Origin: an uncultured Gammaproteobacteria bacterium
GTDB lineage: Bacteria; Patescibacteriota; Microgenomatia; JALYQM01
DNA: 64,000 nucleotides
Direction: 5' to 3'
Assembly (NCBI GenBank): GCA_964403585.1
Contig: CAYOFQ010000001.1
Coordinates: 1,152,826-1,216,825 of the forward strand
Shown here one piece after another: positions 10,667 to 57,696 of this stretch. Within the stretch, counting starts at the first letter, position 1; every line of letters starts with the position of its first letter. The notes below the pieces were generated by a model. That model worked only from the letters and a program-made list of their open reading frames with translations. It had not been told where the DNA came from and searched no databases. The translations under genes were made by a program, and so were the position numbers.

Positions 10667-10856
10667 ATTCTCATGAGTCTTGGTCAGAACCTAACTTTAA
10701 AAGATAGAAAACTGCATATTGATCTGCATAAACCACTACTGTTCATTGAAGAAATCAAATTATCTGAAAGGTCAGTTTATGAAGGGTTAGAACCTGAAAA
10801 AGAAAGCATTAATAAGCCATTATTAGAGAAATTATGGACTGAGAATCCAAGTGTGT

Positions 10857-10925
10857 TGCCGGACTAGGATTCGAACCTAGAAAAACGGATTCAGAGTCCG
10901 TTGTGATACCGTTTCACCATCCGGC
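10857..10925 (-). tRNA. tRNA-Gln (anticodon CUG), compact 69-nt form
   Basis: Canonical GGTTCGAATCC T-arm, anticodon loop CUCUGAA, acceptor GCCGGAU/GUCCGGC, discriminator A; no CCA encoded; D-arm short. Confidence 0.6.
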
Positions 10926-11063
10926 AGTAAAACACTGACGCCTATAGTACCACAAAAACCCCAGTCCAGGCAACACAGAAGCGGTAAGATAGGTTCAGTT
11001 TACTGTATTCCTTGGGACGGATTTTCTCTTTATAATCTTATGAGAATGTGATAGTATCGATGT

Positions 11064-38437: not shown

Positions 38438-39514
38438 ATGCAGTGGATAAAGTTTCCCGTAATCGTATTTACTGTATGGAAATCCATCCTTACCGTATAT
38501 CTCATCTATTTTGAACCATTACTCTTACCCTCGATACATAGTCAGACACTGAATCAAAGACTATACCTTGCCTGGGTTAGCCGATGGGATTCTGTATTTT
38601 ATTTGGACATTGCCTGGAAAGGATATAGTTTTCCGAATCAGGCATTTTTTCCATTATTTCCACTGCTGATCAGCCTTCTAAACAAACTGGGCCTTTCAAT
38701 AGACATTAGTGCATTTTTCCTTAGTCAATTATTTTCATTAACTGCAATAATTGGTTTTTATCTACTTGGCAGAAAAGTACTATCCGAGCAACAGGCACAA
38801 CAAGCAATCCTCATGTTTATCTGCTTCCCAACGGTATTTTTTATTAATGCTGCGTACACCGAAGGGCTTTTCCTCAGCCTGGCAATCTTCTCTTACTATT
38901 TTTTTGAAAAGAAAAAGTATTATCTGTCGGCAATAGCCGGCGGTCTTGCTTCCGCGACCAGAGTCGTGGGACTTGCGGCTGGTTCACAATTCTTATTCGT
39001 AAAATCACCCCGGCAAAGATATCTATATATGGGTATCTCAAGCATCGGTATAGTGGTATATATGCTCTATTTACAGCTTACATTCCATGATCCGCTCATT
39101 TTTATACACTCGCAAAAAATGTGGACACAACCGCACGGGTATCCGCGACTGATGCTTCCTTTTGAACAAGTCTTCACCTACCCGTATCAGCTCCTAACCG
39201 ATACCAGGGTTGCCAAGACACCCATATTATTTGTCGATTGGAGCCTCTCGCTGATTTTTATTGCGTTGTCGATACAGGTCTGGAAACGACTTGGTCCCCG
39301 CTATGGACTATATAGTTTGCTCGTGGTACTTATTCCATTATTAAGTGGCAATATCATGAGCATGAGCAGATTTGTGCTTACCGCGTTTCCGGTATTTTTA
39401 GTACTTCCTTTAATAATCAGAAATAAATACATTCTCTACAGCATGTATATTGTCTGTTTTGGGTTACAACTGCTATTTATCAGTGCGTTTATCAACAACA
39501 TCTGGATCGGCTAA
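38438..39514 (+). CDS. PIG-V-like (Mannosyl_trans2 / GT76) integral-membrane mannosyltransferase
   Basis: RWDSVFYLDIAWKGYSF...AFFPLFP matches the GPI-mannosyltransferase-2 family signature RWDS.HYL.IAE.GY...AFFPLFP; more than 8 TM helices. Confidence 0.65.
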   Translation: MQWIKFPVIVFTVWKSILTVYLIYFEPLLLPSIHSQTLNQRLYLAWVSRWDSVFYLDIAWKGYSFPNQAFFPLFPLLISLLNKLGLSIDISAFFLSQLFSLTAIIGFYLLGRKVLSEQQAQQAILMFICFPTVFFINAAYTEGLFLSLAIFSYYFFEKKKYYLSAIAGGLASATRVVGLAAGSQFLFVKSPRQRYLYMGISSIGIVVYMLYLQLTFHDPLIFIHSQKMWTQPHGYPRLMLPFEQVFTYPYQLLTDTRVAKTPILFVDWSLSLIFIALSIQVWKRLGPRYGLYSLLVVLIPLLSGNIMSMSRFVLTAFPVFLVLPLIIRNKYILYSMYIVCFGLQLLFISAFINNIWIG

Positions 39515-42852: not shown

Positions 42853-44475
42853 ATGCTTATAAAAGTAGCCGGTCTTACCAAACATGTAGGAGCAAAGGAA
42901 CTCATTTCCGAGCTCGACTTTACCATTTATCCTAAAGAGAAAATTGCTCTGATCGGAAGAAACGGACACGGCAAATCAACCCTGCTGCGCATCCTGTCCG
43001 GCGAAGATTCTGATTTTACGGGCAATGTCGAAAAACGCAAAAACTTACGCATTGTACTGACTCGTCAGGAACACATTAATAACAACGACATCACCGCCCT
43101 CGATTATATTCTGGAAAGTGTGCCAAATTATAATCAGTACGGCAGCGTTATTTCCCGCTATGAATCGGGCGACCATGCTGATTTGCACGCCTACACCGAC
43201 GCAGTAAACTACTTTTCCGACAATGGGTACTACTATATTAAGGATCTTATCCTCGAATCACTCCGAAGCTTCCAGATCGACACTACCAAGGCGTACCACC
43301 AGCTCAAAACGCTTTCCGGTGGTGAAAAAAGATTTGTTGAACTAGTCCGGGTAATGTATTCCCAGGCTGACCTGTTACTCATTGATGAACCAACCAACCA
43401 CATGGATTACGTTGGTAAAGAACAGTTTATCGACTGGCTCAAGTCAGCCACCGAAAGCATCATTATTGTCACCCATGACCGCGATGTATTGAAACACGTT
43501 ACCAAAATCATTGAACTGAAAGACAAAAAAATGATTACCTTTAACGGTAATTATGACCACTATCTGAAACAGAATACAACCCAGACAACCAATTCGGTAA
43601 TCCAGTATGAGAACCAGCTAAAACGGCTCGAAGAGGCCAAAAAGAAGGTTGACTGGGGGTTGCGCATGCGGGCGAAAAGCAAGGAGTGGAAAATTCGCTA
43701 TGATCACTGGCTACGGGACTACGAAAAAATTAAAGCCGAAACGGTAAAACCTTCGTTTTGGATAGATCAGGAATCAAAAGACTTGCTTGATCAGGAGATT
43801 GTAGATTCGTACCACAAGTATAAAGAAAAAAACATTGCCATTACAGTAAAAGAACATAAAGAAAAAGTGAGTCACCTGCTTTCATTAAAACATCTCTCCT
43901 TGGGATATGACCGACCGCTATTTGAACAGATCAACTTCTCTATGCATAACCACGACCGGATATTTATCAAAGGTCGCAACGGTGCAGGAAAAAGCACCCT
44001 GGTCAGAACAATACTTTCTACGTACCGGCAGAAACAACCGGGCGCAACTACCTTCGCCGGCGAAATAGAGCTGGGCGCCGATTTACGCATCGGCGAATAC
44101 GAACAGGAAATTAATCCCGATTTCTTAGGTCAGGGATTGGCCACTGCAATTAAAGAAGCCTACGAAAGCTTTGGAATACTACTTGAAGACCGGAAAATAA
44201 AATCGCTGATGGCCCAATACTTATTTGACCCGGTTCTCGAAGCGAATCAAACCCTGGAAACACTATCCGGAGGTCAAAAAGCCCGCTTTCAGATCATTAA
44301 AATGTTAGCCAACAATCCAAATTTACTGATCCTTGATGAACCCACCAACCATCTCGACTTGCCTTCAATTGAAGAGCTTGAAAATGCACTCCAGTCCTTC
44401 CAAGGGGGAATTCTCTACGTCTCACACGATACCTATTTCATAAAAAAAATGGGTGGAAAAGTAGTCGAAATTTAA
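42853..44475 (+). CDS. ABC-F family ATPase (tandem ABC domains, no TM domain)
   Basis: Two Walker A motifs (GRNGHGKST and GRNGAGKST), two LSGG signatures, inter-domain linker; 540 aa. Confidence 0.85.
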   Translation: MLIKVAGLTKHVGAKELISELDFTIYPKEKIALIGRNGHGKSTLLRILSGEDSDFTGNVEKRKNLRIVLTRQEHINNNDITALDYILESVPNYNQYGSVISRYESGDHADLHAYTDAVNYFSDNGYYYIKDLILESLRSFQIDTTKAYHQLKTLSGGEKRFVELVRVMYSQADLLLIDEPTNHMDYVGKEQFIDWLKSATESIIIVTHDRDVLKHVTKIIELKDKKMITFNGNYDHYLKQNTTQTTNSVIQYENQLKRLEEAKKKVDWGLRMRAKSKEWKIRYDHWLRDYEKIKAETVKPSFWIDQESKDLLDQEIVDSYHKYKEKNIAITVKEHKEKVSHLLSLKHLSLGYDRPLFEQINFSMHNHDRIFIKGRNGAGKSTLVRTILSTYRQKQPGATTFAGEIELGADLRIGEYEQEINPDFLGQGLATAIKEAYESFGILLEDRKIKSLMAQYLFDPVLEANQTLETLSGGQKARFQIIKMLANNPNLLILDEPTNHLDLPSIEELENALQSFQGGILYVSHDTYFIKKMGGKVVEI

Positions 44476-44476
44476 G

Positions 44477-44550
44477 TGGCTATTATTGGACTCGAACCAA
44501 TGACCTCTTCGATGTGAACGAAGCGCTCTAACCAGCTGAGCTAAACAGCC
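44477..44550 (-). tRNA. tRNA-Val (anticodon CAC)
   Basis: GGCUGUUUAGCUCAGCUGGUUAGAGC...CUUCGUUCACAUCGAAG...GGUUCGAGUCC...AAUAGCC A; no CCA encoded. Confidence 0.8.
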
Positions 44551-44553
44551 ATT

Positions 44554-44588
44554 AAAAATGCCGGGCAGATTTCTCCAGCCCGGCATAA
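44554..44588 (-). terminator. hairpin ATGCCGGGC-N12-GCCCGGCAT followed by a U-run on the minus strand
   Basis: Lies between the end of the pilin-like gene and the 5' end of tRNA-Val. Confidence 0.5.
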
Positions 44589-44612
44589 GTATACTACATC
44601 TCTAATTTTCGT

Positions 44613-45926
44613 CTAATAGGCGCTTAAATCCTCATCGTCGACAGTACCCGGATCCTCACCTGCCGGACGTGTCATTCCCGCATCTGAACCTCCGGAGGTA
44701 TCGTCACCTGCAGGGAACGTACCGTCCTCATTTGGCCTCATCCGATCTGAATTGGCGTCACCGGATTCGGAACTTGATACACAGTACAAACTGCCAAGTA
44801 TATCAGGTTTAGCCATTATCCCCGTACTGTTTCCGGACTTCTCTTCCAGGCGCGCACAGAGACTAAAATCATTACCATCTTCAGTGACCGTATACTGATA
44901 CGGTGCTTTCGTCTTTGGATCAACCGGCAAAGTCCCTATTCCTCCAGCCTGCACTAAAGCGTCCAGTGATGTCGGATAGGTACCATTGGTTGCTTTATAC
45001 AGATCAAGACTCCCCTGTATTTTCGCTAAATCAGCCATCCGGTTGGCATCACGGGCAGTCTTTACTAACCCTGAAGGGTTAATCGCCAATAACATAATAG
45101 GTAATGCAAACAAAGCGATCATCGCTACTATACCTACTACAGCCATAACCGTAAACTTTTTACGGGTACCATCAGCAATGGGAATTACTCCCGGCTTTAG
45201 AGCTTTAAGATTCTCATAGAGCGCAAATCCATACGTCACAGCCAGAAAATTCATGGCCATTTGCACTACCCAGGAGACCAGTGCCACAATTCCGGCAAAC
45301 ATCGGATAGCCTGCCTTGGCCAGTTGCTCCTGTAGCGCCGAAATAAGAATTATCAGGATAAAATACACTAATCCGAGAACAAAAAACCGCCCGAATACTC
45401 CCCACCATCGTCCCCGAACATATTCCCGGCTTGTTAAGGCGGCATTCAATCCTTTAATATTCTGGTCAACCAGCACCAGGTGACTGAACGCAAATGCCAC
45501 CGCCAAAATGATACCCGGTATTATTAACACCATAAAACCGGTTGCCACGATCAAACCTAAAAGTAAACTAACCCATAAATAGGGAAGAATATATTGTTTT
45601 GACGCGCTGTACGCCTCATTAAAACTAACATCACGGTCATGATGAACAACTAAGTAGATTTCTGCTAGTTGAACCCACATCCCAACCACCAGGAAGACAA
45701 TGTAAGACACTACAATTGCAATAATAATGCCGGCGCCGAGACCACTAAAGTCCGACATCCCGCCCAGCATGGCGGTTCCCCCAACCATTACCACCATCAG
45801 GATCATCCATGCGATAACAAATCCAATTAAGGGCAGGAATATCAGGAGAGCTGACTTCCACTTTTTTTCAAAAATCATCCACGCGCGATCAAAAAGTTGC
45901 GATGGACCCAATAATGTTTGCTCCAT
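44613..45926 (-). CDS. polytopic membrane protein with C-terminal type-IV-pilin/T2SS-GspG-like domain and acidic tail
   Basis: About 270-aa multi-TM N-domain; then pilin-like helix MAVVGIVAMIALFALPIMLLA; then NRMADLAKIQGSLDLYKATNGTYPTSLDAL...LPVDPKTKAPYQY resembling GspG (DIRTIETALDMYKLDNGRYPT...PKDPWGNPYQY); D/E/G/S-rich tail. Confidence 0.6.
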   Translation of the reverse strand: MEQTLLGPSQLFDRAWMIFEKKWKSALLIFLPLIGFVIAWMILMVVMVGGTAMLGGMSDFSGLGAGIIIAIVVSYIVFLVVGMWVQLAEIYLVVHHDRDVSFNEAYSASKQYILPYLWVSLLLGLIVATGFMVLIIPGIILAVAFAFSHLVLVDQNIKGLNAALTSREYVRGRWWGVFGRFFVLGLVYFILIILISALQEQLAKAGYPMFAGIVALVSWVVQMAMNFLAVTYGFALYENLKALKPGVIPIADGTRKKFTVMAVVGIVAMIALFALPIMLLAINPSGLVKTARDANRMADLAKIQGSLDLYKATNGTYPTSLDALVQAGGIGTLPVDPKTKAPYQYTVTEDGNDFSLCARLEEKSGNSTGIMAKPDILGSLYCVSSSESGDANSDRMRPNEDGTFPAGDDTSGGSDAGMTRPAGEDPGTVDDEDLSAY

Positions 45927-46002
45927 ACATACCTCACAAATTAGTTGTACTAATAACAGTATTCACCGAGCAAATGTGCTTTGCAAGGGGCAGCTGAGAA
46001 TA

Positions 46003-46833
46003 TTATGAGAGGATTCTATCATTGAATAGCACTTTTTGCATGAAGACCCATGTGGCTGTGATAATACGACGATATCGCTGCGGTTGTTTAAGCAGTCTAT
46101 ATACCCATTCCAACCCCATAGAACGCATCCATGCAGGCGCTCGCGGTACTCTCCCACCAATATAATCAAACGTACCACCAACACCAACCGCTATCCTGAA
46201 ATTCAGTTGGTCACGGTAACGATCTATCCATAAATCCTGCCAGGGATGCCCGTACGCAACAAGTAAGACATCCGGCTTAAAATTGATTATGTCTGCAATT
46301 ACGACTGAGTTTTCCTTCTCATCACTGTGCGCAACATTCCGCACACCATTTGAAGAACGGAAATGAATATCGGGATTAACTTGTTGTAATCTTCTCATTG
46401 CCATCGAAGATACGCTGTCGGCACCGCCAAGAAGATATATTTTCCGCCCCTTCATCCACTCTTGCTGAACGAGCAGCCAGGTAAAATCAACTCCGGTAAT
46501 CCTCTCCAAAGTCTTTCCTTCAAACACAACCGGACGATTTTTTATTCCCACCTGCCAAAAAGAGGTAAGAAAAGAAAAGTACGCTCTTACTTTAGTCGTT
46601 GGCTTTTTTTTCAATGCGTAATCAATAGCACACAGGACTCCAACACCATCGATCAGTGAAATATCCGCCGCATTAATTACGCGCCTAAAAGCATTATTTG
46701 TCTGGGCTTCAATAATAAACTCAGGATTGGTAGTTACCAGATGGTGTTTCTTACCATCCTCAAGATATTGTAAAAGGACATCCAGCAATTCCTGCTTATT
46801 CGTAGTCGACAGTTTGACATCGAGTAAATACAT
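46003..46833 (-). CDS. WecB/TagA/CpsF-family glycosyltransferase (GT26)
   Basis: N-terminal VTTNPEFI...NAADISLIDGVGV and C-terminal GLEWVYRLLKQPQRYRR signature. Confidence 0.8.
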   Translation of the reverse strand: MYLLDVKLSTTNKQELLDVLLQYLEDGKKHHLVTTNPEFIIEAQTNNAFRRVINAADISLIDGVGVLCAIDYALKKKPTTKVRAYFSFLTSFWQVGIKNRPVVFEGKTLERITGVDFTWLLVQQEWMKGRKIYLLGGADSVSSMAMRRLQQVNPDIHFRSSNGVRNVAHSDEKENSVVIADIINFKPDVLLVAYGHPWQDLWIDRYRDQLNFRIAVGVGGTFDYIGGRVPRAPAWMRSMGLEWVYRLLKQPQRYRRIITATWVFMQKVLFNDRILS

Positions 46834-46836
46834 AAT

Positions 46837-48039
46837 CTATTTCTCAAGCACCCGTAGGGTCTCATCCCCTGCCTTCTTCCAACTAAACCGCTGTACATTC
46901 ACTAAGCCCTTCTTGCGCAACGAATCAGCATAAAGCCGATCTCCAAGAACTTTGTTGATTCCACGCGCAATATCCTCAGGGGATTCGGGATCTACGTATT
47001 CACACCCATCTCCCCCCACTTCCGTCATTGGTTTTTTGCGGGAAGTAACAACAGGAGTATTTACGGACTGGGCTTCAATAATCGGAATACCAAATCCCTC
47101 AAAAAGAGACGGAAAAACAAAAACCTTAGCTCCTTTTAATAATGAAATCGCTTCAGCATCAGGTACATGCCCCAGGAACTTAACCCTATCCGCCACCCCA
47201 GAACGCGCAGACTCCGCAAAGATATCTTCATGCAACCAGCCTTTTTTACCGGCCAAAGCTAATTGCAGTTTCGGCATCTGTTCCTGAACAAGCGAGGATT
47301 GGATAACCTGACTAAAGGCCTGTATCAAACGCACCAGATTTTTGCGCGGCTGAATTGTCCCGATGAATAATATATAGTCGGAGTCGAGACTGTAATGAGA
47401 TAGTAGCGTAATCCCCGGCTTCTGAATATTTTGTTTATTAAATGAATCCCAGCCAAAACCTTCATAAATTACACTTATTTTCTTTTCATCTGCTTTTAAC
47501 TTACCAACCAAATCTTCCTTAGTAGCTTCTGAAACGGCAATAAGCCGGTCGGCATGTTTCACCGCGTATTCAGTTGAACGATTAAGCCATAACTTTTGAG
47601 GAAATTGATGATACTGTGGCAGGTATTCATAGCCCAGATCATGAATAGTCACCACCGTTCGGATTTTCTTCTTACGAACTACCGGCAGGGTATGAGCAGG
47701 AACAAACAAGACATCAGGAGGATATTTCCATAATTCTCTGGCTAAGCCCACTTGAGTCCACAACCACTTATTTTTTATCACAATCAGGCGGTAATTTTGG
47801 GTTGGAGGAAGCTGTTTTCGAACTGTTTCAACCCACTGAGTTACCCGTTCTTTCTGTGATTTTCCCTGGTACATTTCCTCGGCACGTTTATCGAGAAGCT
47901 CAGCCGGCAAGCGCAGATATATTTTATAAGCATTACGCCGGTCAGTCTGAAGCAGATTTACCAGAATATTATATGAATAATTCTCAGTACCTGTTCTCTC
48001 GGAGATAAAAGCCCGGGATGCATCAAAACCAATAATCAT
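46837..48039 (-). CDS. GT4-family glycosyltransferase
   Basis: FPSLFEGFGIPIIEAQSVNTPVVTS (E-x7-E). Confidence 0.8.
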   Translation of the reverse strand: MIIGFDASRAFISERTGTENYSYNILVNLLQTDRRNAYKIYLRLPAELLDKRAEEMYQGKSQKERVTQWVETVRKQLPPTQNYRLIVIKNKWLWTQVGLARELWKYPPDVLFVPAHTLPVVRKKKIRTVVTIHDLGYEYLPQYHQFPQKLWLNRSTEYAVKHADRLIAVSEATKEDLVGKLKADEKKISVIYEGFGWDSFNKQNIQKPGITLLSHYSLDSDYILFIGTIQPRKNLVRLIQAFSQVIQSSLVQEQMPKLQLALAGKKGWLHEDIFAESARSGVADRVKFLGHVPDAEAISLLKGAKVFVFPSLFEGFGIPIIEAQSVNTPVVTSRKKPMTEVGGDGCEYVDPESPEDIARGINKVLGDRLYADSLRKKGLVNVQRFSWKKAGDETLRVLEK

Positions 48040-48115
48040 ATGCCAATATTATATTCATAATAGCCTAAAAAGGCCACCACGTATAATAGAGTCGGTAGAG
48101 ATCCAAGATAGGGTT

Positions 48116-49147
48116 TTAACGTCGACTAATTCCCCGTTTATATAGGTCGATATTCTCAATTGCAACACCGGTACCAATCGCCACACACATAAGAGGATTC
48201 TCGGCGACATACACAGGAACACCGGTCGACATACTCAGAAGTTTATCCAAATTTCGAAGTTGAGAGGTGCCCCCTGACAATACTATACCTTTATCGATTA
48301 TATCGGCAGCTAACTCCGGCGGCGTTTGCTCCAAAACATGACGTGCCATCGAAACAATCGACTGAAGACTTGGACTGATCGCCTCATGAATATCATCCGA
48401 GCTAACTTCGATAATTTTCGGTAATCCATCAATCGCGTCACGTCCTTTTATCTCCATAGCCAGAACCGGATCCAGCGGGATAGCCGAAGCAATATTAATT
48501 TTAATCTCTTCCGACATGCGTTCACCAATAATAAGATTAAATTTACGACGAATATACGTCGCAATCGCTTCATCAATTTTATTCCCAGCTACCCGCACCG
48601 AACCGTGAACAACCACTCCGCCCAGCGAAATAACAGCTGACTCTGCCGAACCACCACCAATATCGATAATCATATTACCCGAGGGATGTGCAATCGGAAT
48701 CTTAGCGCCAATTGAAGCAGCCAGTGGCTCATCAATCAAGTACGCGGTCTTAGCCCCCGCCGACATAGTTGCATCAAGCACCGCCCGGCGTTCCACCGAC
48801 GTAACCCCTGAAGGTACACATATCATCACTTCCGGCTTAAAAAACCGCGAAGTACCACAGACTTTATCGATAAAATAACGGAGCATCGCTTCGGTAATTA
48901 CATAATCTGCAATTACACCATCACGCATCGGGCGCGAAGCAACTATATTAGTTGGAGTACGCCCTAACATTTCGCGCGCTTCATTTCCAACCGCCACTAC
49001 TTTATTGTCATCAACCGATACAGCAACCACCGACGGCTCATTCAGAACAATCCCCTCACCCGCCAAATACACCAGCGAATTCGCCGTTCCCAAGTCAATA
49101 CCGATACGTTTAGTAAAATTCATCATAAGTATCCTATACTCTGACAC
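48116..49147 (-). CDS. mreB: rod-shape-determining protein MreB (actin-like ATPase)
   Basis: IGIDLGTANSLVY phosphate-1 motif, adenosine and phosphate-2 motifs; 343 aa. Confidence 0.9.
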   Translation of the reverse strand: MSEYRILMMNFTKRIGIDLGTANSLVYLAGEGIVLNEPSVVAVSVDDNKVVAVGNEAREMLGRTPTNIVASRPMRDGVIADYVITEAMLRYFIDKVCGTSRFFKPEVMICVPSGVTSVERRAVLDATMSAGAKTAYLIDEPLAASIGAKIPIAHPSGNMIIDIGGGSAESAVISLGGVVVHGSVRVAGNKIDEAIATYIRRKFNLIIGERMSEEIKINIASAIPLDPVLAMEIKGRDAIDGLPKIIEVSSDDIHEAISPSLQSIVSMARHVLEQTPPELAADIIDKGIVLSGGTSQLRNLDKLLSMSTGVPVYVAENPLMCVAIGTGVAIENIDLYKRGISRR

Positions 49148-49433
49148 TGCAGTGATGTCGTAGTGAACGACTCAAAAAACTCCGAACTGGGAATTTGAGG
49201 ATTTTTGCGTAAGAAATCTGACTTGTCTGAGGAGCATGCGACGAGTTGTCAGATTTTAGCAAAAATCGAAAATTCATAACGTTTTTTGTCGGAGTGAACA
49301 AACGACGTTACTGCAGTAGCGTGAGCACTCCAAATATACCAGAAAACCCCCTCGGATACCAGTTTGGTATAATAGATCAAATAGCCTGCTTTTAACCCTT
49401 TACCACACTCCTATTACCCTTTATTATTAACCT

Positions 49434-50750
49434 ATGGATAAAAAAACAAGAATTCTCGTTTCGATCGCCTCAATAGTAATATTGGGCTTAGGAACCATTA
49501 TCGGCGTCCTCCTGGTACAGGGATATACTTTTGACGCCAAAAACAAGAAAGTTGTACAGACCGGAGTATTAGTCGTAAACTCAGTGCCGAATGGTGCTCA
49601 AATTTATATTGACGGTCACTATCAAAACGTAACGAATACCAGTATCTCCTTTCTCCCAGCCAAAAAATACAGCATCCGTATAACCAAGGAAGGATATATT
49701 CCGTGGGAAAAAGAGATGACAATCGACAACCAAATTATCTCAGAAATTGAGGCAATACTGTGGCCGGCCACACCGAGCGTAAATCCGATAACCAATACCG
49801 GGGCTATTGATGTCAAACTTTCGCCCGACATGCTTAAAGCCGCATACGCCATACGATTTAGCGAAAAGGATAAAGCCGGCTTATGGATAATGGATATGGC
49901 TAAAAGAACAGTATTTTCCGGACCCTCTACGGATTTTACCCAAATTGCACGGAACACCAACGACTTAGACTTCAGCAGAGCCGAATTACTGTGGTCACCG
50001 GACAGCAAACAAATCCTGGCAACACTTCAGGAAGGCAACCGGCCGGAAGCACGATATACCCGTAATTTTCTTCTTGATATAACCAAACTAAACACCAATC
50101 CTACCGATATAACACTTTCCAAGGACGGACAATTAAAGACCTGGAACGATGAACTGAATAAAATTGAAAATGTCCGGTTAACTAAAATAGCCAGCGATGT
50201 TAAAGCAATCAAGATAGCTTCCGATTCGGCAATTCCGTTGAAATGGTCATACGACGGCACCATGTTCCTGTACGCAACAAAAGATACACCGGACACTGCT
50301 GCAACCCAAAAGCCAAAAGTGGTAGTAGTGCCTTCGCTCAATAAAACAGCCACTCAGTCAGCTGCTGCCGTAGATGCCATTGAAGCCACCAGCGCCGCCA
50401 GTTATATTTCACGAATAGAAAGTCAGACCGCCAGCTTCTCGGCCAACCTGAATGTAAAAATTTACGATACCAAGAAAAAAACCAGCTTCGATATGCCTAA
50501 GGCAAAATATTACGCCTGGTACCCCGCTGAAGAAAAAGCTGATCGGGAAATTCAACACCTGGTTATGGTTGAAGATGGTAGTATCTCCATGGTCGAAACC
50601 GACGGTAAGAACAAGTCGACGATTTATTCAGGTCCATTTGAAGACAGCATTGTCTTCCCCTGGCCTGACGGAGGACGTCTGGTGATACTCACCAACTTCA
50701 ATCTTAAGGCAGGAACTGAACCAAATATTTATACAATAAATCTAAGATAA
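49434..50750 (+). CDS. membrane-anchored PEGA-domain protein with TolB-like beta-propeller repeats
   Basis: TM helix; PEGA motif VVNSVPNGAQIYIDGHYQNVTNTSISFLPAKKYSIRITKEGYIPWE; later LWSPDSKQILAT and WSYDGTMFLYAT. Confidence 0.55.
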   Translation: MDKKTRILVSIASIVILGLGTIIGVLLVQGYTFDAKNKKVVQTGVLVVNSVPNGAQIYIDGHYQNVTNTSISFLPAKKYSIRITKEGYIPWEKEMTIDNQIISEIEAILWPATPSVNPITNTGAIDVKLSPDMLKAAYAIRFSEKDKAGLWIMDMAKRTVFSGPSTDFTQIARNTNDLDFSRAELLWSPDSKQILATLQEGNRPEARYTRNFLLDITKLNTNPTDITLSKDGQLKTWNDELNKIENVRLTKIASDVKAIKIASDSAIPLKWSYDGTMFLYATKDTPDTAATQKPKVVVVPSLNKTATQSAAAVDAIEATSAASYISRIESQTASFSANLNVKIYDTKKKTSFDMPKAKYYAWYPAEEKADREIQHLVMVEDGSISMVETDGKNKSTIYSGPFEDSIVFPWPDGGRLVILTNFNLKAGTEPNIYTINLR

Positions 50751-50755
50751 GCTCT

Positions 50756-50986
50756 ATGAAAATACGGTATAGCTTATTAATAGGATTTTTTCTCTCCTTG
50801 GCATCAGGACTCTTTGTTTCTGAGACATGCATTCTCGTTTGCAACGATACACGAGGTTGGCCCGTGCCTTATGCGACTGCGTTGTTTGATGGAGTAGATT
50901 TTATATTCTTTTTAATAAATACAATGCTCTGGGCGATAGTAACTTGGATAATAGGACTAATCGCAATAAAACGAAGTAAATATTAA
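50756..50986 (+). CDS. small membrane protein
   Basis: Two hydrophobic helices; ORF only. Confidence 0.3.
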   Translation: MKIRYSLLIGFFLSLASGLFVSETCILVCNDTRGWPVPYATALFDGVDFIFFLINTMLWAIVTWIIGLIAIKRSKY

Positions 50987-51714
50987 CGATCCAATTTAGC
51001 TCGAACAACTAATCGTTGCCAGGTAGTTCCCGGAGGCCAGCAGGTTTGTAAGCTCAATACCGGTTCCGAATATTGAGATTCCAATGGAGCCAAATCACGG
51101 GCACTGTGCACTTGCTTATCAAAAACCAGATAATCGTATCGCTCCCCTTTATAAAATGTTGAAATTCGATCACCCGCGTCCAGATTATGGAGCAGGAAGA
51201 AAACAGCATTATATTTGGGGATATCCCACGCATTTAACGTGTTATGGGCAAATAGATAGACATTACCGGTTTCCCCCGGAAAACGGGAGCCTTTAGCATG
51301 CGCCACACCTTTCTTCAAAGCAGCGTCATAGGCTTCCTGACTAAACGGATCGACATCGGCAACAATGGCCGAGTTGGCATGAATTTTCTCAATTACAATG
51401 CCATAATCGGTATTAACCGGTTCATCAGTTAACGCCGGGAGTACTTTCTTCACCACCTCCCCTGATTGAGTAGCCACAGCAGGAATGCGTACACTTTCAG
51501 GAATTTGCGCCTCTTCTGCCGCACGGTTAGTAGTCGCCCGTTCCCACCGGTAGCCTACTTCAGCAGCTATTACAGGGTAAAACTGAGATGCCACAAATAG
51601 CAGGGAACCGATAATCAGGATATTACCAACGGTACGGATCATGAAGATTTTTCGGTATTTAGACCGGTCTTCGTGAACAAAAAACATATGGAAAAAATCC
51701 TGAAAGATACTCAT
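50983..51714 (-). CDS. sortase-family transpeptidase
   Basis: N-terminal TM anchor; His motif GNVYLFAHNTL, L..L..GD, catalytic LSLQTCWPPG (TLxTC-like). Confidence 0.6.
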   Translation of the reverse strand: MSIFQDFFHMFFVHEDRSKYRKIFMIRTVGNILIIGSLLFVASQFYPVIAAEVGYRWERATTNRAAEEAQIPESVRIPAVATQSGEVVKKVLPALTDEPVNTDYGIVIEKIHANSAIVADVDPFSQEAYDAALKKGVAHAKGSRFPGETGNVYLFAHNTLNAWDIPKYNAVFFLLHNLDAGDRISTFYKGERYDYLVFDKQVHSARDLAPLESQYSEPVLSLQTCWPPGTTWQRLVVRAKLDR

Positions 51715-55041: not shown

Positions 55042-57696
55042 TTAAAACTCATCGGACCACTGTGGATCAACCGGATCGGCTAATTCAATATCCTTGCTAC
55101 CGGTCTGTGTCGGAGCAACCACATACTTAATTCCATCTTCTTTACCGGGACCACAGGAAGTTGTAGTAAGACCTGGGGTAAAGTGAGGCAATAAACACAT
55201 TTTATAGCCTGGAGGATCGTACATTTTCTTATCCGGATAGTATTTTGTATACGCTTCAATGATTGAGAAGGATACTAATCCTTCAGGAGTAATATTGATT
55301 CCCTGGAAACCTCCCCAGCCGTATCCACCATCCTGAGCACGGGAAACTTTACCGGATAACGGAAGCCCCTGTTCCCACCGGCCGTTACTACCGTTCTTAT
55401 ATGCATACTGCATTTGAATAAAACCGCTGTAATTTAAGAATCTATAAACGATAACTGTCGTGTCACCAATCCGGGCAATCGCACTATTCGAGGATTCCGC
55501 AAAACGTCGACTTCCTAAGTCATATTGCAACATATCCTTGGCGTCTTGACCGGGTGCATATTTAAGCAATCCCCGCTCATAGTCAATCGATCGACGCACC
55601 GCAAATTCAGGTTTAGTAAATACATTCCCATTTGTCACATAAGTTGTATGGATAACCCCTACCTGCCCGTTTAAAGTATTTCGACCCACCGGAGTAACTG
55701 CCGCTGCAATATCGGCAAAACATGAGTTAAATGAACCGGATGGCGTACCACTCAAGGCGCAACGTGCCTGAACCGTAAATGGACGCGAATCATAACCGCC
55801 GGTCTTAAGATTCATGCCATCGGCATTAAGCGGCACCGGCCGTGACGGAACTATATTGGTAAGCCCGGTGTCTCCAAAGTAGAACTTCGAATAATACAGG
55901 TTCCCGCCGCCTTCGTCAGCACCAAGCACATGAATTCCATCCAGTTCATCGATAGCAAAAGCTCCGTTAAATGGAAACTGCACAGGCAATTTCTCTTTGG
56001 GCGTCCAGCTTTTACCACCATCATAACTAATAGTATAGGTATACTTTTGAGCACCGCTACCACCCAGTGGATAGAAAACAATAACTGAACCTTTAGAATT
56101 TACAAAGGTATACAAAGCGAAGTGTTCATATCCGATATCTCCATATCCGGGAACTGGAGCAAACGGGCTCAAAAAGTCTGGCTCATCAGAAATCGAGACA
56201 TACAGCTGTTTACCCGCAATTGTAGCAACCGAATAGCGTTGCCCTTTTACCTGTTGGTGGAGCGCCGGAACTTCTTGCGGATCATCCAAACGGCTTCCGT
56301 CCCGTAACGGCCTGGCACCAAGCGGTTTTCCATCAACAAAAACAGTACCCTTTAATCGCCCCTGCTCACCTCTGAGATAGGCTCGATGAACCCCAGATTG
56401 AGTTACTCCATATCCAGTTGGTAAAAGCTCAGCATTAGCAAAACGATAGTCATTGGAAATTTCGACATCGGCGCCAAGCTCACTGACGAAATCCATTTCA
56501 AAAGGACCATGTCTGTTAACACCCGAAACATCTCCACCAATATCGAATGCCGCAGGAAGTCCCTCCGGACTACCGTCAATCCGGGTCTTCTTCTGAGAAT
56601 CCAACCATTTGCGATCCTGACCTGAATAGAGTCCCAACTTATCGTACAGTGCCGGCTTATAATACTGCTCAATGGCATCCTGATCAAAAGGAAGTTCATT
56701 CGTTTTATTATCAAACGTACCTGCAGATAAGTACGGTTTGGTTGAGAAACTCACCGGAGCGACACCCGGACCTGCCGGTGTTCCCGGCTCACTGTCTGTG
56801 GAAGTTGGATCCTGGAAAATAATATCCGGAGTGTCTCCCAATGCACAAACGTTACTTTCAAGTGGAGGATACTGTATCGGCTGAGCCGGAGCACCACCAT
56901 TTGCAGTAGGCTCGGCACACAAGATATCGGCAATGAAGTTCTTATCTTTTGGTGTTCTAAACACGCAGATACCGTCTGCACCGTCCGGTGGATTTGGATA
57001 CGTGCTCAGATCCGTTACCTGGCAGTCAACATCTGGTAAGTTATATTTATCGGCGCAGAAATTAGGTGTAGCGGTATTACAATACCAGGGGCCGGTATGA
57101 ATGATCGGCGGAATAGCCCGGGCAATCTGTCGGATAGTTTGAACATACGGTACGTTAATTTCCTGTGAATCGGTAATACCTTGAAACGGTGTGTCAACAC
57201 CGTTACAGCTCAAATCCCATCGCCACGCTCCGGCGCTTTCTACCGGGGTATACGTACAATCCTGTCGGGAAATAGTCCCGTTGGTCTCAAAAGTCAGTTT
57301 ACCTTTGGAGATAGTCTTAGTATCAATACATTTGGTTTTCCAGCGATCCTCACCATATTTGGCAATTGCGGCAGTCTCATCGACAGTGACAAACGGAGTG
57401 AGCAAATTATAATAATTCCAGAATATTTGGGAATAGTTATAAGACTTGAGATTAGCATCAAAACCGTACGATACACCTTGTCCTGGATTAAAACTCATCC
57501 CTCCGCCTTCTGACAAGTCGTCATAATTCGGATTCTTAACTTTGCCGTTAGTTATGGCTCCACCCCACACTGCCGGCTGCCAATAACACTCTACTGCCTC
57601 GACAGGTTGCACAAAAACACTCGACGCGAGAATCGAGTAAAACACTATACCGAGAGACAAAAACGAGCTTAAATACTTAGGCAATCGATATTTCAT
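55042..57696 (-). CDS. large (884-aa) secreted Cys-rich protein with BNR/Asp-box motif
   Basis: Signal-anchor; one clear Asp-box SYDGGKSW; many Cys; first gene of a BNR-GT2-MFS unit. Confidence 0.55.
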   Translation of the reverse strand: MKYRLPKYLSSFLSLGIVFYSILASSVFVQPVEAVECYWQPAVWGGAITNGKVKNPNYDDLSEGGGMSFNPGQGVSYGFDANLKSYNYSQIFWNYYNLLTPFVTVDETAAIAKYGEDRWKTKCIDTKTISKGKLTFETNGTISRQDCTYTPVESAGAWRWDLSCNGVDTPFQGITDSQEINVPYVQTIRQIARAIPPIIHTGPWYCNTATPNFCADKYNLPDVDCQVTDLSTYPNPPDGADGICVFRTPKDKNFIADILCAEPTANGGAPAQPIQYPPLESNVCALGDTPDIIFQDPTSTDSEPGTPAGPGVAPVSFSTKPYLSAGTFDNKTNELPFDQDAIEQYYKPALYDKLGLYSGQDRKWLDSQKKTRIDGSPEGLPAAFDIGGDVSGVNRHGPFEMDFVSELGADVEISNDYRFANAELLPTGYGVTQSGVHRAYLRGEQGRLKGTVFVDGKPLGARPLRDGSRLDDPQEVPALHQQVKGQRYSVATIAGKQLYVSISDEPDFLSPFAPVPGYGDIGYEHFALYTFVNSKGSVIVFYPLGGSGAQKYTYTISYDGGKSWTPKEKLPVQFPFNGAFAIDELDGIHVLGADEGGGNLYYSKFYFGDTGLTNIVPSRPVPLNADGMNLKTGGYDSRPFTVQARCALSGTPSGSFNSCFADIAAAVTPVGRNTLNGQVGVIHTTYVTNGNVFTKPEFAVRRSIDYERGLLKYAPGQDAKDMLQYDLGSRRFAESSNSAIARIGDTTVIVYRFLNYSGFIQMQYAYKNGSNGRWEQGLPLSGKVSRAQDGGYGWGGFQGINITPEGLVSFSIIEAYTKYYPDKKMYDPPGYKMCLLPHFTPGLTTTSCGPGKEDGIKYVVAPTQTGSKDIELADPVDPQWSDEF

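Follow-up and report, generated by a model that had tools for sequence, protein, structure and literature searches.

A prepilin-length domain fused behind a six-helix membrane core in Patescibacteria

What defines a type IV pilin is a signal at its N-terminus, by which the protein can be cut and then extracted from the membrane into a filament, and the biology of Patescibacteria is thought to depend on pili and on contact at the cell surface. What, then, might a pilin do when it sits not at the N-terminus but behind several membrane-spanning segments of the same polypeptide? The question is raised by a gene in a 64,000-nt stretch of a Patescibacteria contig (CAYOFQ010000001.1, positions 1,152,826 to 1,216,825 of the forward strand; hereafter the window, in whose own numbering coordinates are given unless another locus is named). 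There, a protein of 437 amino acids (aa) is encoded on the minus strand at 44613..45926. A preliminary description, made from the letters of the window alone, had recognized a pilin-like C-terminal domain, preceded by a hydrophobic alpha-1 helix and fused behind a polytopic membrane domain. As we describe below, this fusion takes in more than the pilin head, since the N-terminal half of the pilin alpha-1 helix (alpha-1N) and a remnant of the leader and cleavage site are included as well, with the residues that matter most for processing and assembly replaced. We consider it probable that the protein belongs to a family of modular membrane platforms, and that this form permanently displays a non-polymerising, pilin-derived ectodomain. 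Its layout, on the minus strand throughout, is as follows (TM, transmembrane; a slash marks the prepilin cleavage position).

44613..45926, minus strand: open reading frame (ORF) of the fusion gene, 437 aa
45932..45935, minus strand: Shine-Dalgarno-like GAGG, 5 nt before the ATG at 45926, read from the sequence
45192..45926, minus strand: six-TM core, residues 1-245 (hydropathy, AlphaFold2, Pfam/NCBIfam)
45411..45431, minus strand: SREYVRG motif, residues 166-172, the most conserved motif of the family (alignment)
45141..45167, minus strand: degenerate prepilin leader/cleavage remnant TRKK/FTVMA, residues 254-262 (alignment with prepilins)
45081..45155, minus strand: seventh TM helix (TM7), residues 258-282, homologous to pilin alpha-1N (hydropathy, AlphaFold2, alignment)
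44772..45080, minus strand: predicted extracytoplasmic pilin/GspG-like head, residues 283-385 (T2SSG, Protein Data Bank profile, Foldseek)
44616..44771, minus strand: acidic Gly/Ser/Asp-rich disordered tail, residues 386-437 (composition, model confidence)
44613-44615, minus strand: stop codon of the fusion gene

The annotated start is supported by the GAGG lying 5 nt 5' of the ATG, and the close homologs P0002-P0004 start at the position equivalent to that of the fusion protein.

The pilin resemblance of TM7 and the head, which we refer to jointly as the module, emerges from several kinds of comparison. Searched in isolation, the module scores 22.7 bits against Pfam T2SSG (PF08334), above the gathering cut-off of 21; the full-length protein scores 19.2 bits, so that the T2SSG comparison proposed as a check in the preliminary description succeeds on the module and falls short on the whole protein. 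The full-length protein also gives a weak match to GspG in the Protein Data Bank (PDB; E 0.003), and T2SSG is matched by 6 of 11 relatives. Once relatives are used, the resemblance is solid and well beyond chance: all 14 PDB matches of a module profile are pilins or pseudopilins, the best alignment being to a geopilin and beginning in the leader/FTLIE region, and out of 5.8 billion database sequences the module profile picks 432 proteins. Its nearest free-standing relatives are PF07963 prepilins of 130-160 aa (E 1e-11 to 5e-19), the named ones among which come from Patescibacteria lineages. Structural comparison points the same way, as the top nine Foldseek matches of the module model are EpsG, other pseudopilins, and type IV pilins, with probabilities of 0.18-1.00 (at least 0.92 for the top five), modest E-values of 3e-3 to 1, and target-normalised TM-scores of up to 0.58; EpsG itself (4lw9) is matched at a probability of 1.00 with TM-scores of 0.50/0.57.

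The AlphaFold2 model, built with 33 relatives (mean pLDDT, the predicted local distance difference test score, 84.9; pTM, the predicted TM-score, 0.74), gives the module the 'lollipop' shape of a pilin. A nearly continuous helix runs from residue 252 to 314 (252-282 and 284-314, interrupted at the single residue 283), in which a hydrophobic alpha-1N, with a hydropathy peak at 259-282, continues into the C-terminal half (alpha-1C); in pilins, about 21 hydrophobic residues likewise run on into one helix of about 50 residues. In the head, the model has alpha-1C, an alpha-beta loop helix at 321-326, and strands at 344-347, 354-359, and 380-384 of a small sheet, in keeping with the antiparallel beta-sheet that packs on alpha-1C in the pilin fold. 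In the alignments, TM7 falls on prepilin alpha-1N, in line with the pilin-like helix noted previously, and the homology extends over residues 254-385, the whole length of a prepilin. Among the features kept are a basic stretch before the helix, an alpha-1N of about 24 residues, the alpha-1C pattern RDAxR...D...L..Y...YP, and a C-terminal pair of cysteines.

What the module lacks are the signals by which a pilin is processed and assembled. In a pilin, the leader is 6-26 aa long and its last residue, an invariant Gly at -1, is 'absolutely critical' if processing is to take place; mutants of Glu5 are unable to homopolymerise (PMC4471445). The consensus of genuine prepilins reads KGFTLIELLVVIAIIG...LNSARxKSRDAKR...ALELYY...YP, and at the same columns the fusion protein reads KKFTVMAVVGIVAMIA...INPSGLVKTARDANR...SLDLYK...YP. 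The Phe at +1 and the Thr at +2 are thus retained, with Lys257 in place of Gly at -1 and Ala262 in place of Glu at +5, and six TM helices precede the -1 position, which is residue 257 of the chain. The absence of a G/FTLIE cleavage motif, remarked on before, is therefore borne out, with KK/FTVMA as its remnant at the homologous columns. This loss is a property of the family: when a hidden Markov model of prepilin N-termini was run on 176 family representatives, in 115 of which the module is present, the canonical G/F-x-x-x-E was found in 0 of 115 modules, as against 103 of 116 free-standing prepilin relatives, and +5 in alignable family modules is occupied by G in 24, by A in 10, and by S in 4, with E in none. 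Because the defining signals fail while the fold is kept, we class the module as pilin-derived rather than as a pilin. With Lys at -1, a membrane protein of about 257 residues in place of the leader, and Ala at +5, neither processing by prepilin peptidase nor ATPase-driven assembly into a filament is predicted to occur.

The topology of the protein was judged from the whole-protein count of lysine and arginine (K+R) and from the pattern of cysteines. The predicted cytoplasmic loops contain 15 K+R and the predicted outside loops 1, which argues for an N-terminus inside and for TM7 running outward, as alpha-1N does in a prepilin; the K+R directly flanking TM7 do not discriminate (2.95 vs 2.60) and are uninformative, because pilin alpha-1C is itself basic. 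Cys357 and Cys382, the only cysteines of the protein, both lie in the head and are both conserved. Across the family, the number of cysteines per head is even in all 107 heads counted (2 in 84, 4 in 15, 6 in 6, and 0 in 2), which matches the pattern expected of disulfides in an extracytoplasmic domain, and a Cys357-Cys382 disulfide probably stabilises the head, comparable to that of the pilin D-region. Beyond the head, the acidic Gly/Ser/Asp tail of the preliminary description is readily recognized as the 52 aa of residues 386-437 (D10, E4, G8, S6, and no K); it is disordered in the model (pLDDT below 50), and of the relatives only the closest, P0002-P0004, have a tail like it. A Tyr at the C-terminus is mildly enriched (13 of 115 family members), with no consistent motif among these 115.

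The N-terminal part is polytopic, as previously stated, with hydropathy placing six TM helices at 26-48, 63-85, 113-133, 136-156, 176-198, and 209-231; the model reproduces these and TM7, with pLDDT mostly above 90 over residues 1-245. Profile matches to the core are significant and below curated thresholds: PF06790 at E 1.3e-5 (25.6 bits, cut-off 31.4) and the NCBIfam model of YciC (NF002774) at E 1.7e-7 (31.2 bits, cut-off 227). PF06790 is matched by 15 of the 33 relatives and PF10110 (GPDPase_memb) by 5 of 33 (E of 1e-3 or below), and PF25231 and PF06161 are among the precomputed Pfam matches in relatives. On these profile similarities, the core is a relative of YciC/UPF0259 at the superfamily level and not a YciC equivalog; it fits a YciC/UPF0259, GPDPase_memb, and DUF975 superfamily, to whose models its six-TM domain is recognisably similar. 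Foldseek on the core returned no significant solved structural relative. Within the family alignment, S166, R167, E168, Y169, and V170 are invariant and G172 nearly so, forming an SREYVxG site that is predicted to lie on the cytoplasmic side, in the TM4-TM5 loop; a second invariant cluster, P137 and I139 of an IIPGI motif, belongs to the short turn that connects TM3 with TM4 on the outer face. Overexpression of E. coli YciC lowers intracellular D-alanine, and YciC has no more than been proposed, on overexpression, as a D-alanine exporter (PMC10299036); we found no functional claim for the core superfamily in the literature beyond this one.

The fusion is not confined to one contig. A search with a full-length profile among representatives clustered at 50% identity gave 53,772 proteins at an E-value of 1e-3 or below and 2,809 clusters at 1e-30 or below, most of the top 150 matches aligning from the core through the head. 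The search for the same fusion in related genomes, which had been suggested at the outset, thus finds it as a single ORF in more than 100 divergent relatives. In a scan of GTDB with a narrow pattern and one genome per species, which yielded 80 loci, core and head are encoded as one ORF at 20. Metagenome-assembled genomes with a head are labelled Uhr-, Ames-, Levyi-, Lipton-, or Jorgensenbacteria, Microgenomates, or Patescibacteria, or have generic labels, and in the non-Patescibacteria matches (Geothermobacter, Desulfuromonas, Desulfobulbus) the core is present and the head is missing; among the loci scanned, the pilin-bearing form is seen only in Patescibacteria-type genomes.

Around the core, the family is modular. 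Members consist of the core alone, of the core with a bare TM7, or of the core with one or two pilin heads; tandem pilin-like heads follow TM7 at 3 of the 20 loci (L009 5616-7286, L011 9836-11542, and L018 9845-11482) as well as in P0013 and P0045, and the second head of L009 scores 32.7 bits against T2SSG, well over the Pfam cut-off. Other members have unrelated domains at the head position, either PsbP-like (PF18933, PF01789) or Kre9/KNH Ig-like with Big_7 (L016 9803-11815, L029 118-1779, L035 27-1940, and L041 9950-11989), and some carry cytoplasmic Zn-ribbons. Most members, though not the clade of the window, also begin with a predicted cytoplasmic domain of about 45 aa, LxxYIxxQLxxGxSxExIxxxLxxxGWxxxDIxxAF, which is seen in P0006-P0011, P0018, P0023, and residues 1-50 of L015 8028-9401 and has no significant Pfam match. 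Two loci, L019 and L036, encode two core paralogs within about 7 kb, one of 417-487 aa with a C-terminal extension (pilin-like in L019 only) and a core-only protein of 257 aa on the opposite strand.

No neighbouring gene accompanies the fusion consistently. In an unbiased clustering of neighbours at the 20 fusion loci and the window (21 loci), the most recurrent family is found at no more than 5 of 21; the five-locus families resemble what we take to be housekeeping genes (ribosomal protein S2, ribosome-recycling factor) and draw their representatives from the same few loci. At four distant fusion loci, the neighbours are unrelated.

Our favoured reading is that the six-TM core has been fused to a complete GspG-like prepilin of Patescibacteria type to give a seven-TM protein with a cytoplasmic N-terminus. 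The pilin alpha-1N would serve as TM7, with alpha-1C and the head outside the membrane and the acidic tail last, so that the head, neither cut nor extracted into a filament, would stay permanently tethered, held up on its helical stalk at the membrane's outer face. Since unrelated binding-type domains share the head position, and since no partner gene is conserved, the head would most likely be a module for binding or recognition outside the cytoplasm that serves the conserved core; the core, which carries the invariant cytoplasmic SREYVxG, may itself act in transport or scaffolding.

Several observations weigh against this interpretation. Both domain assignments are under the curated Pfam/NCBIfam cut-offs in the full-length protein, which is also why the sources that name these proteins call them hypothetical. 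Gly at -1 is kept in 9 of about 20 modules alignable at that position, and cleavage of some of these relatives is conceivable from their sequence. It is from modularity that the binding role is proposed, and the functions of both core and head are putative. Finally, F/Y at +1 and the length of alpha-1N are retained, and 16 of 140 fusion heads have their closest counterpart among the heads of free prepilins (up to 63% identity) and not among the other fusion heads, which suggests repeated acquisition of heads or their exchange with resident pilin genes. A module of this kind could still match resident pilins, suggesting a link to the pilus.

That link is the basis of the alternative that survives best, in which the tethered pilin docks through contacts of its alpha-1 helix and head on pilins in the membrane pool or on the base of a type IV pilus and acts as an anchor, terminator, nucleator, or regulator coupling the pilus to the six-TM platform. 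We regard such an accessory role as unlikely on present evidence. In its favour, a whole prepilin has been retained, with F/Y at +1 and an alpha-1N of unchanged length, and the heads of some fusions share 58-63% identity with those of free prepilins. The candidate phyla radiation is moreover enriched in type IV pili and pilins, which are widespread there (PMC6744442), and Glu5 mutants are able to co-assemble with wild-type subunits (PMC4471445). There is also a precedent for a relative of a filament subunit repurposed as an anchored component, in that ArlF and ArlG (FlaF/FlaG) are duplicates of the archaellum filament subunit ArlB (PMC8667602), and FlaF, a monotopic membrane protein, is described as holding the archaellum in place through its binding to S-layer protein (PMC4425475). 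ArlF and ArlG, however, are single-pass proteins without a polytopic fusion, encoded in the archaellum operon and part of the archaellum machine, with no sequence relation to the fusion beyond the superfamily, and for the fusion no link to a filament machine was found. Apart from the fusion itself, the window contains no pilin or prepilin motif, and the Walker A motif of PilB/T and the PilD motif are absent from it as well; within 10 kb of the fusion, a prepilin-motif ORF is found at 1 of the 20 fusion loci and a PilB/T-like ATPase at none; and in relatives the head is swapped for PsbP-like or Ig-like domains or is absent. The earlier suggestion of an anchor for a surface polymer or a pilus-like filament accordingly finds no support in the gene neighbourhoods or in the architectures of relatives. 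The more specific proposal that the family is a component of the type IV pilus apparatus peculiar to Patescibacteria and so far overlooked, one that anchors, nucleates, or caps the cell-proximal end or gauges the membrane pilin pool and so links pilus dynamics to the SREYVxG site, appears to us slightly less likely again than an accessory role in general.

Two loci call for comment in their own right where pili and related machines are concerned. An apparent free pilin next to the fusion gene in L015 (9570-10028, plus strand), directly downstream of it, was rejected as a fragmentary duplicate of the C-terminus of the head (SNQSYQYQLQPDGKDYKVCASLESTKAQKC); its N-terminus is unrelated basic sequence, and it looks like a rearranged partial duplicate. 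At L004 (544-6907), which represents a distant relative, the fusion gene lies directly downstream of a cluster resembling a type IV secretion system (PrgI, TraC-like, TraG-like ATPase, T4SS_pilin) and upstream of yidC, rnpA, rpmH, and dnaA.

A further possibility arises from the immediate surroundings of the gene, where the co-oriented genes noted in the preliminary description are confirmed by Pfam.

46003-46833, minus strand: WecG/TagA (GT26)
46837-48039, minus strand: GT4
48116-49147, minus strand: MreB

The protein might be a lineage-specific component of a wall glycopolymer pathway, holding or guiding a surface polymer together with the upstream GT26 and GT4 glycosyltransferases, its acidic tail reaching into the wall. 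The fusion gene lies 76 bp downstream of the GT26 gene, with no terminator-like site in the gap, the acidic tail is specific to the clade, and the five relatives matching PF10110 do so to what Pfam describes as the membrane domain of prokaryotic glycerophosphodiester phosphodiesterases. The same gene order is found in the two closest relatives (44-47% identical; loci L001/L007 and L002/L008), which are syntenic over the whole block of MFS (major facilitator superfamily) transporter, RecF-like protein, sortase, PEGA protein, MreB, GT4, GT26, fusion, ABC-F, and PolA. Such sharing carries little functional weight, because a block of at least 17-20 kb is conserved among close relatives. The GT26, GT4, and MreB clusters are present at 3 of the 21 loci, namely the window and these two relatives, and are missing from the 18 other fusion loci, so that the gene's placement 'inside a wall-glycan operon' does not hold for the family. 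Scans for promoters and terminators over 44300-49500 gave results at the shuffle background, which speak neither for nor against co-transcription with GT26 and GT4 and are unable to establish it. We therefore think the wall-glycan role improbable; any such link may be limited to the clade of the window.

Could the core instead be a giant leader, from which prepilin peptidase or another protease releases a pilin for assembly? Some relatives combine a Gly at -1 with an F, Y, or L at +1, as do P0006 (KIG/FVLVG) and P0090 (QKG/FTGIG), and Glu5 is dispensable for cleavage (PMC4471445). Against this, the fusion protein has Lys at -1, known leaders measure 6-26 aa and depend on the Gly, and the absence of Glu at +5 from all 115 modules makes homopolymerisation unlikely; in addition, the core is itself strongly conserved and is also found without any pilin. 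We consider a pro-protein of this kind very improbable. An internal start yielding a separate pilin was likewise considered and rejected, as there is no Met in residues 240-258, Met261 lies past +1, and relatives encode the fusion as one ORF. As for an artefact of frameshift, mis-assembly, or gene calling that joined two genes, single database entries can be damaged (P0005, on a 1.9-kb contig, shows frameshift-like divergence past TM7), but the recurrence of a continuous ORF across independent assemblies (more than 100 representatives at 50% identity) and at 20 GTDB-species loci, with a well-conserved junction and one coherent chain in the AlphaFold2 model, effectively refutes it and leaves it a negligible chance.

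Set beside known systems, the display platform that we favour is a new architectural variant of two known kinds of domain and not a new kind of system. It resembles type IV pilins and GspG in full prepilin-length homology and in topology, with the N-terminus of the helix inside and the head outside (PMC4471445). Unlike type IV pilins, GspG, and EpsG, it has its pilin module in an internal position after about 257 residues, with K at -1, A at +5, and an acidic tail after the head. With YciC/UPF0259, GPDPase_memb, and DUF975 (PF06161) it shares six TM helices and the significant sub-threshold matches to PF06790 and YciC; it differs from them in its own invariant SREYVxG and IIPGI motifs. In glycerophosphodiester phosphodiesterases with PF10110, the catalytic domain follows the membrane domain on the C-terminal side, and the logic of a platform with an added domain would be common to them and to the fusion. 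Modular type IV pilins such as PilB and PilC of Streptococcus sanguinis carry extra modules on the C-terminus, so the pilin tolerates domain fusion; there, a working class III signal peptide stays at the N-terminus and the filament displays the extra module, whereas here the fusion is at the N-terminal side of the pilin and the signal is destroyed. Our literature searches found no description of the core-pilin fusion, an architecture likely to surprise a pilus specialist.

If the favoured reading is right, the pilin fold would serve as a fixed ectodomain besides its use as a filament subunit, and the YciC/DUF975-type membrane domain would be a modular platform for varied outer domains. Standard domain annotation misses both halves of the fusion. 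Should the head after all communicate with the pilus machine, it would be a new component of that machine; should it not, it would illustrate exaptation cleanly and warn against taking every 'pilin-like' gene to encode a filament subunit.

Some further features of the window may be recorded. A tRNA-Val gene (anticodon CAC) at 44476-44550 on the minus strand is found 62 bp beyond the stop codon of the fusion gene, in the same orientation as that gene, and directly abuts the stop codon (44475) of a convergent ABC-F gene at 42853-44475. Upstream of mreB are envelope genes for a PEGA protein with an N-terminal TM helix (49434-50750, plus strand), a sortase (50983-51714, minus strand), and an 884-aa protein with a hydrophobic N-terminus (55042-57696, minus strand); the order of the PEGA protein and sortase is kept in the two closest relatives. 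Between a UvrC-like/exonuclease gene and polA, at 38438-39514 on the plus strand, lies a gene for a polytopic PIG-V / PMT_2-like mannosyltransferase (PF04188, E 2.3e-10), a glycan-related membrane protein that is present in L002 and was not called in L001. Finally, the segment 8001-12000 has a GC content of 0.32-0.36, compared with about 0.43 elsewhere, and holds several short ORFs and a tRNA-Gln gene (10855-10926); it may be an acquired island.

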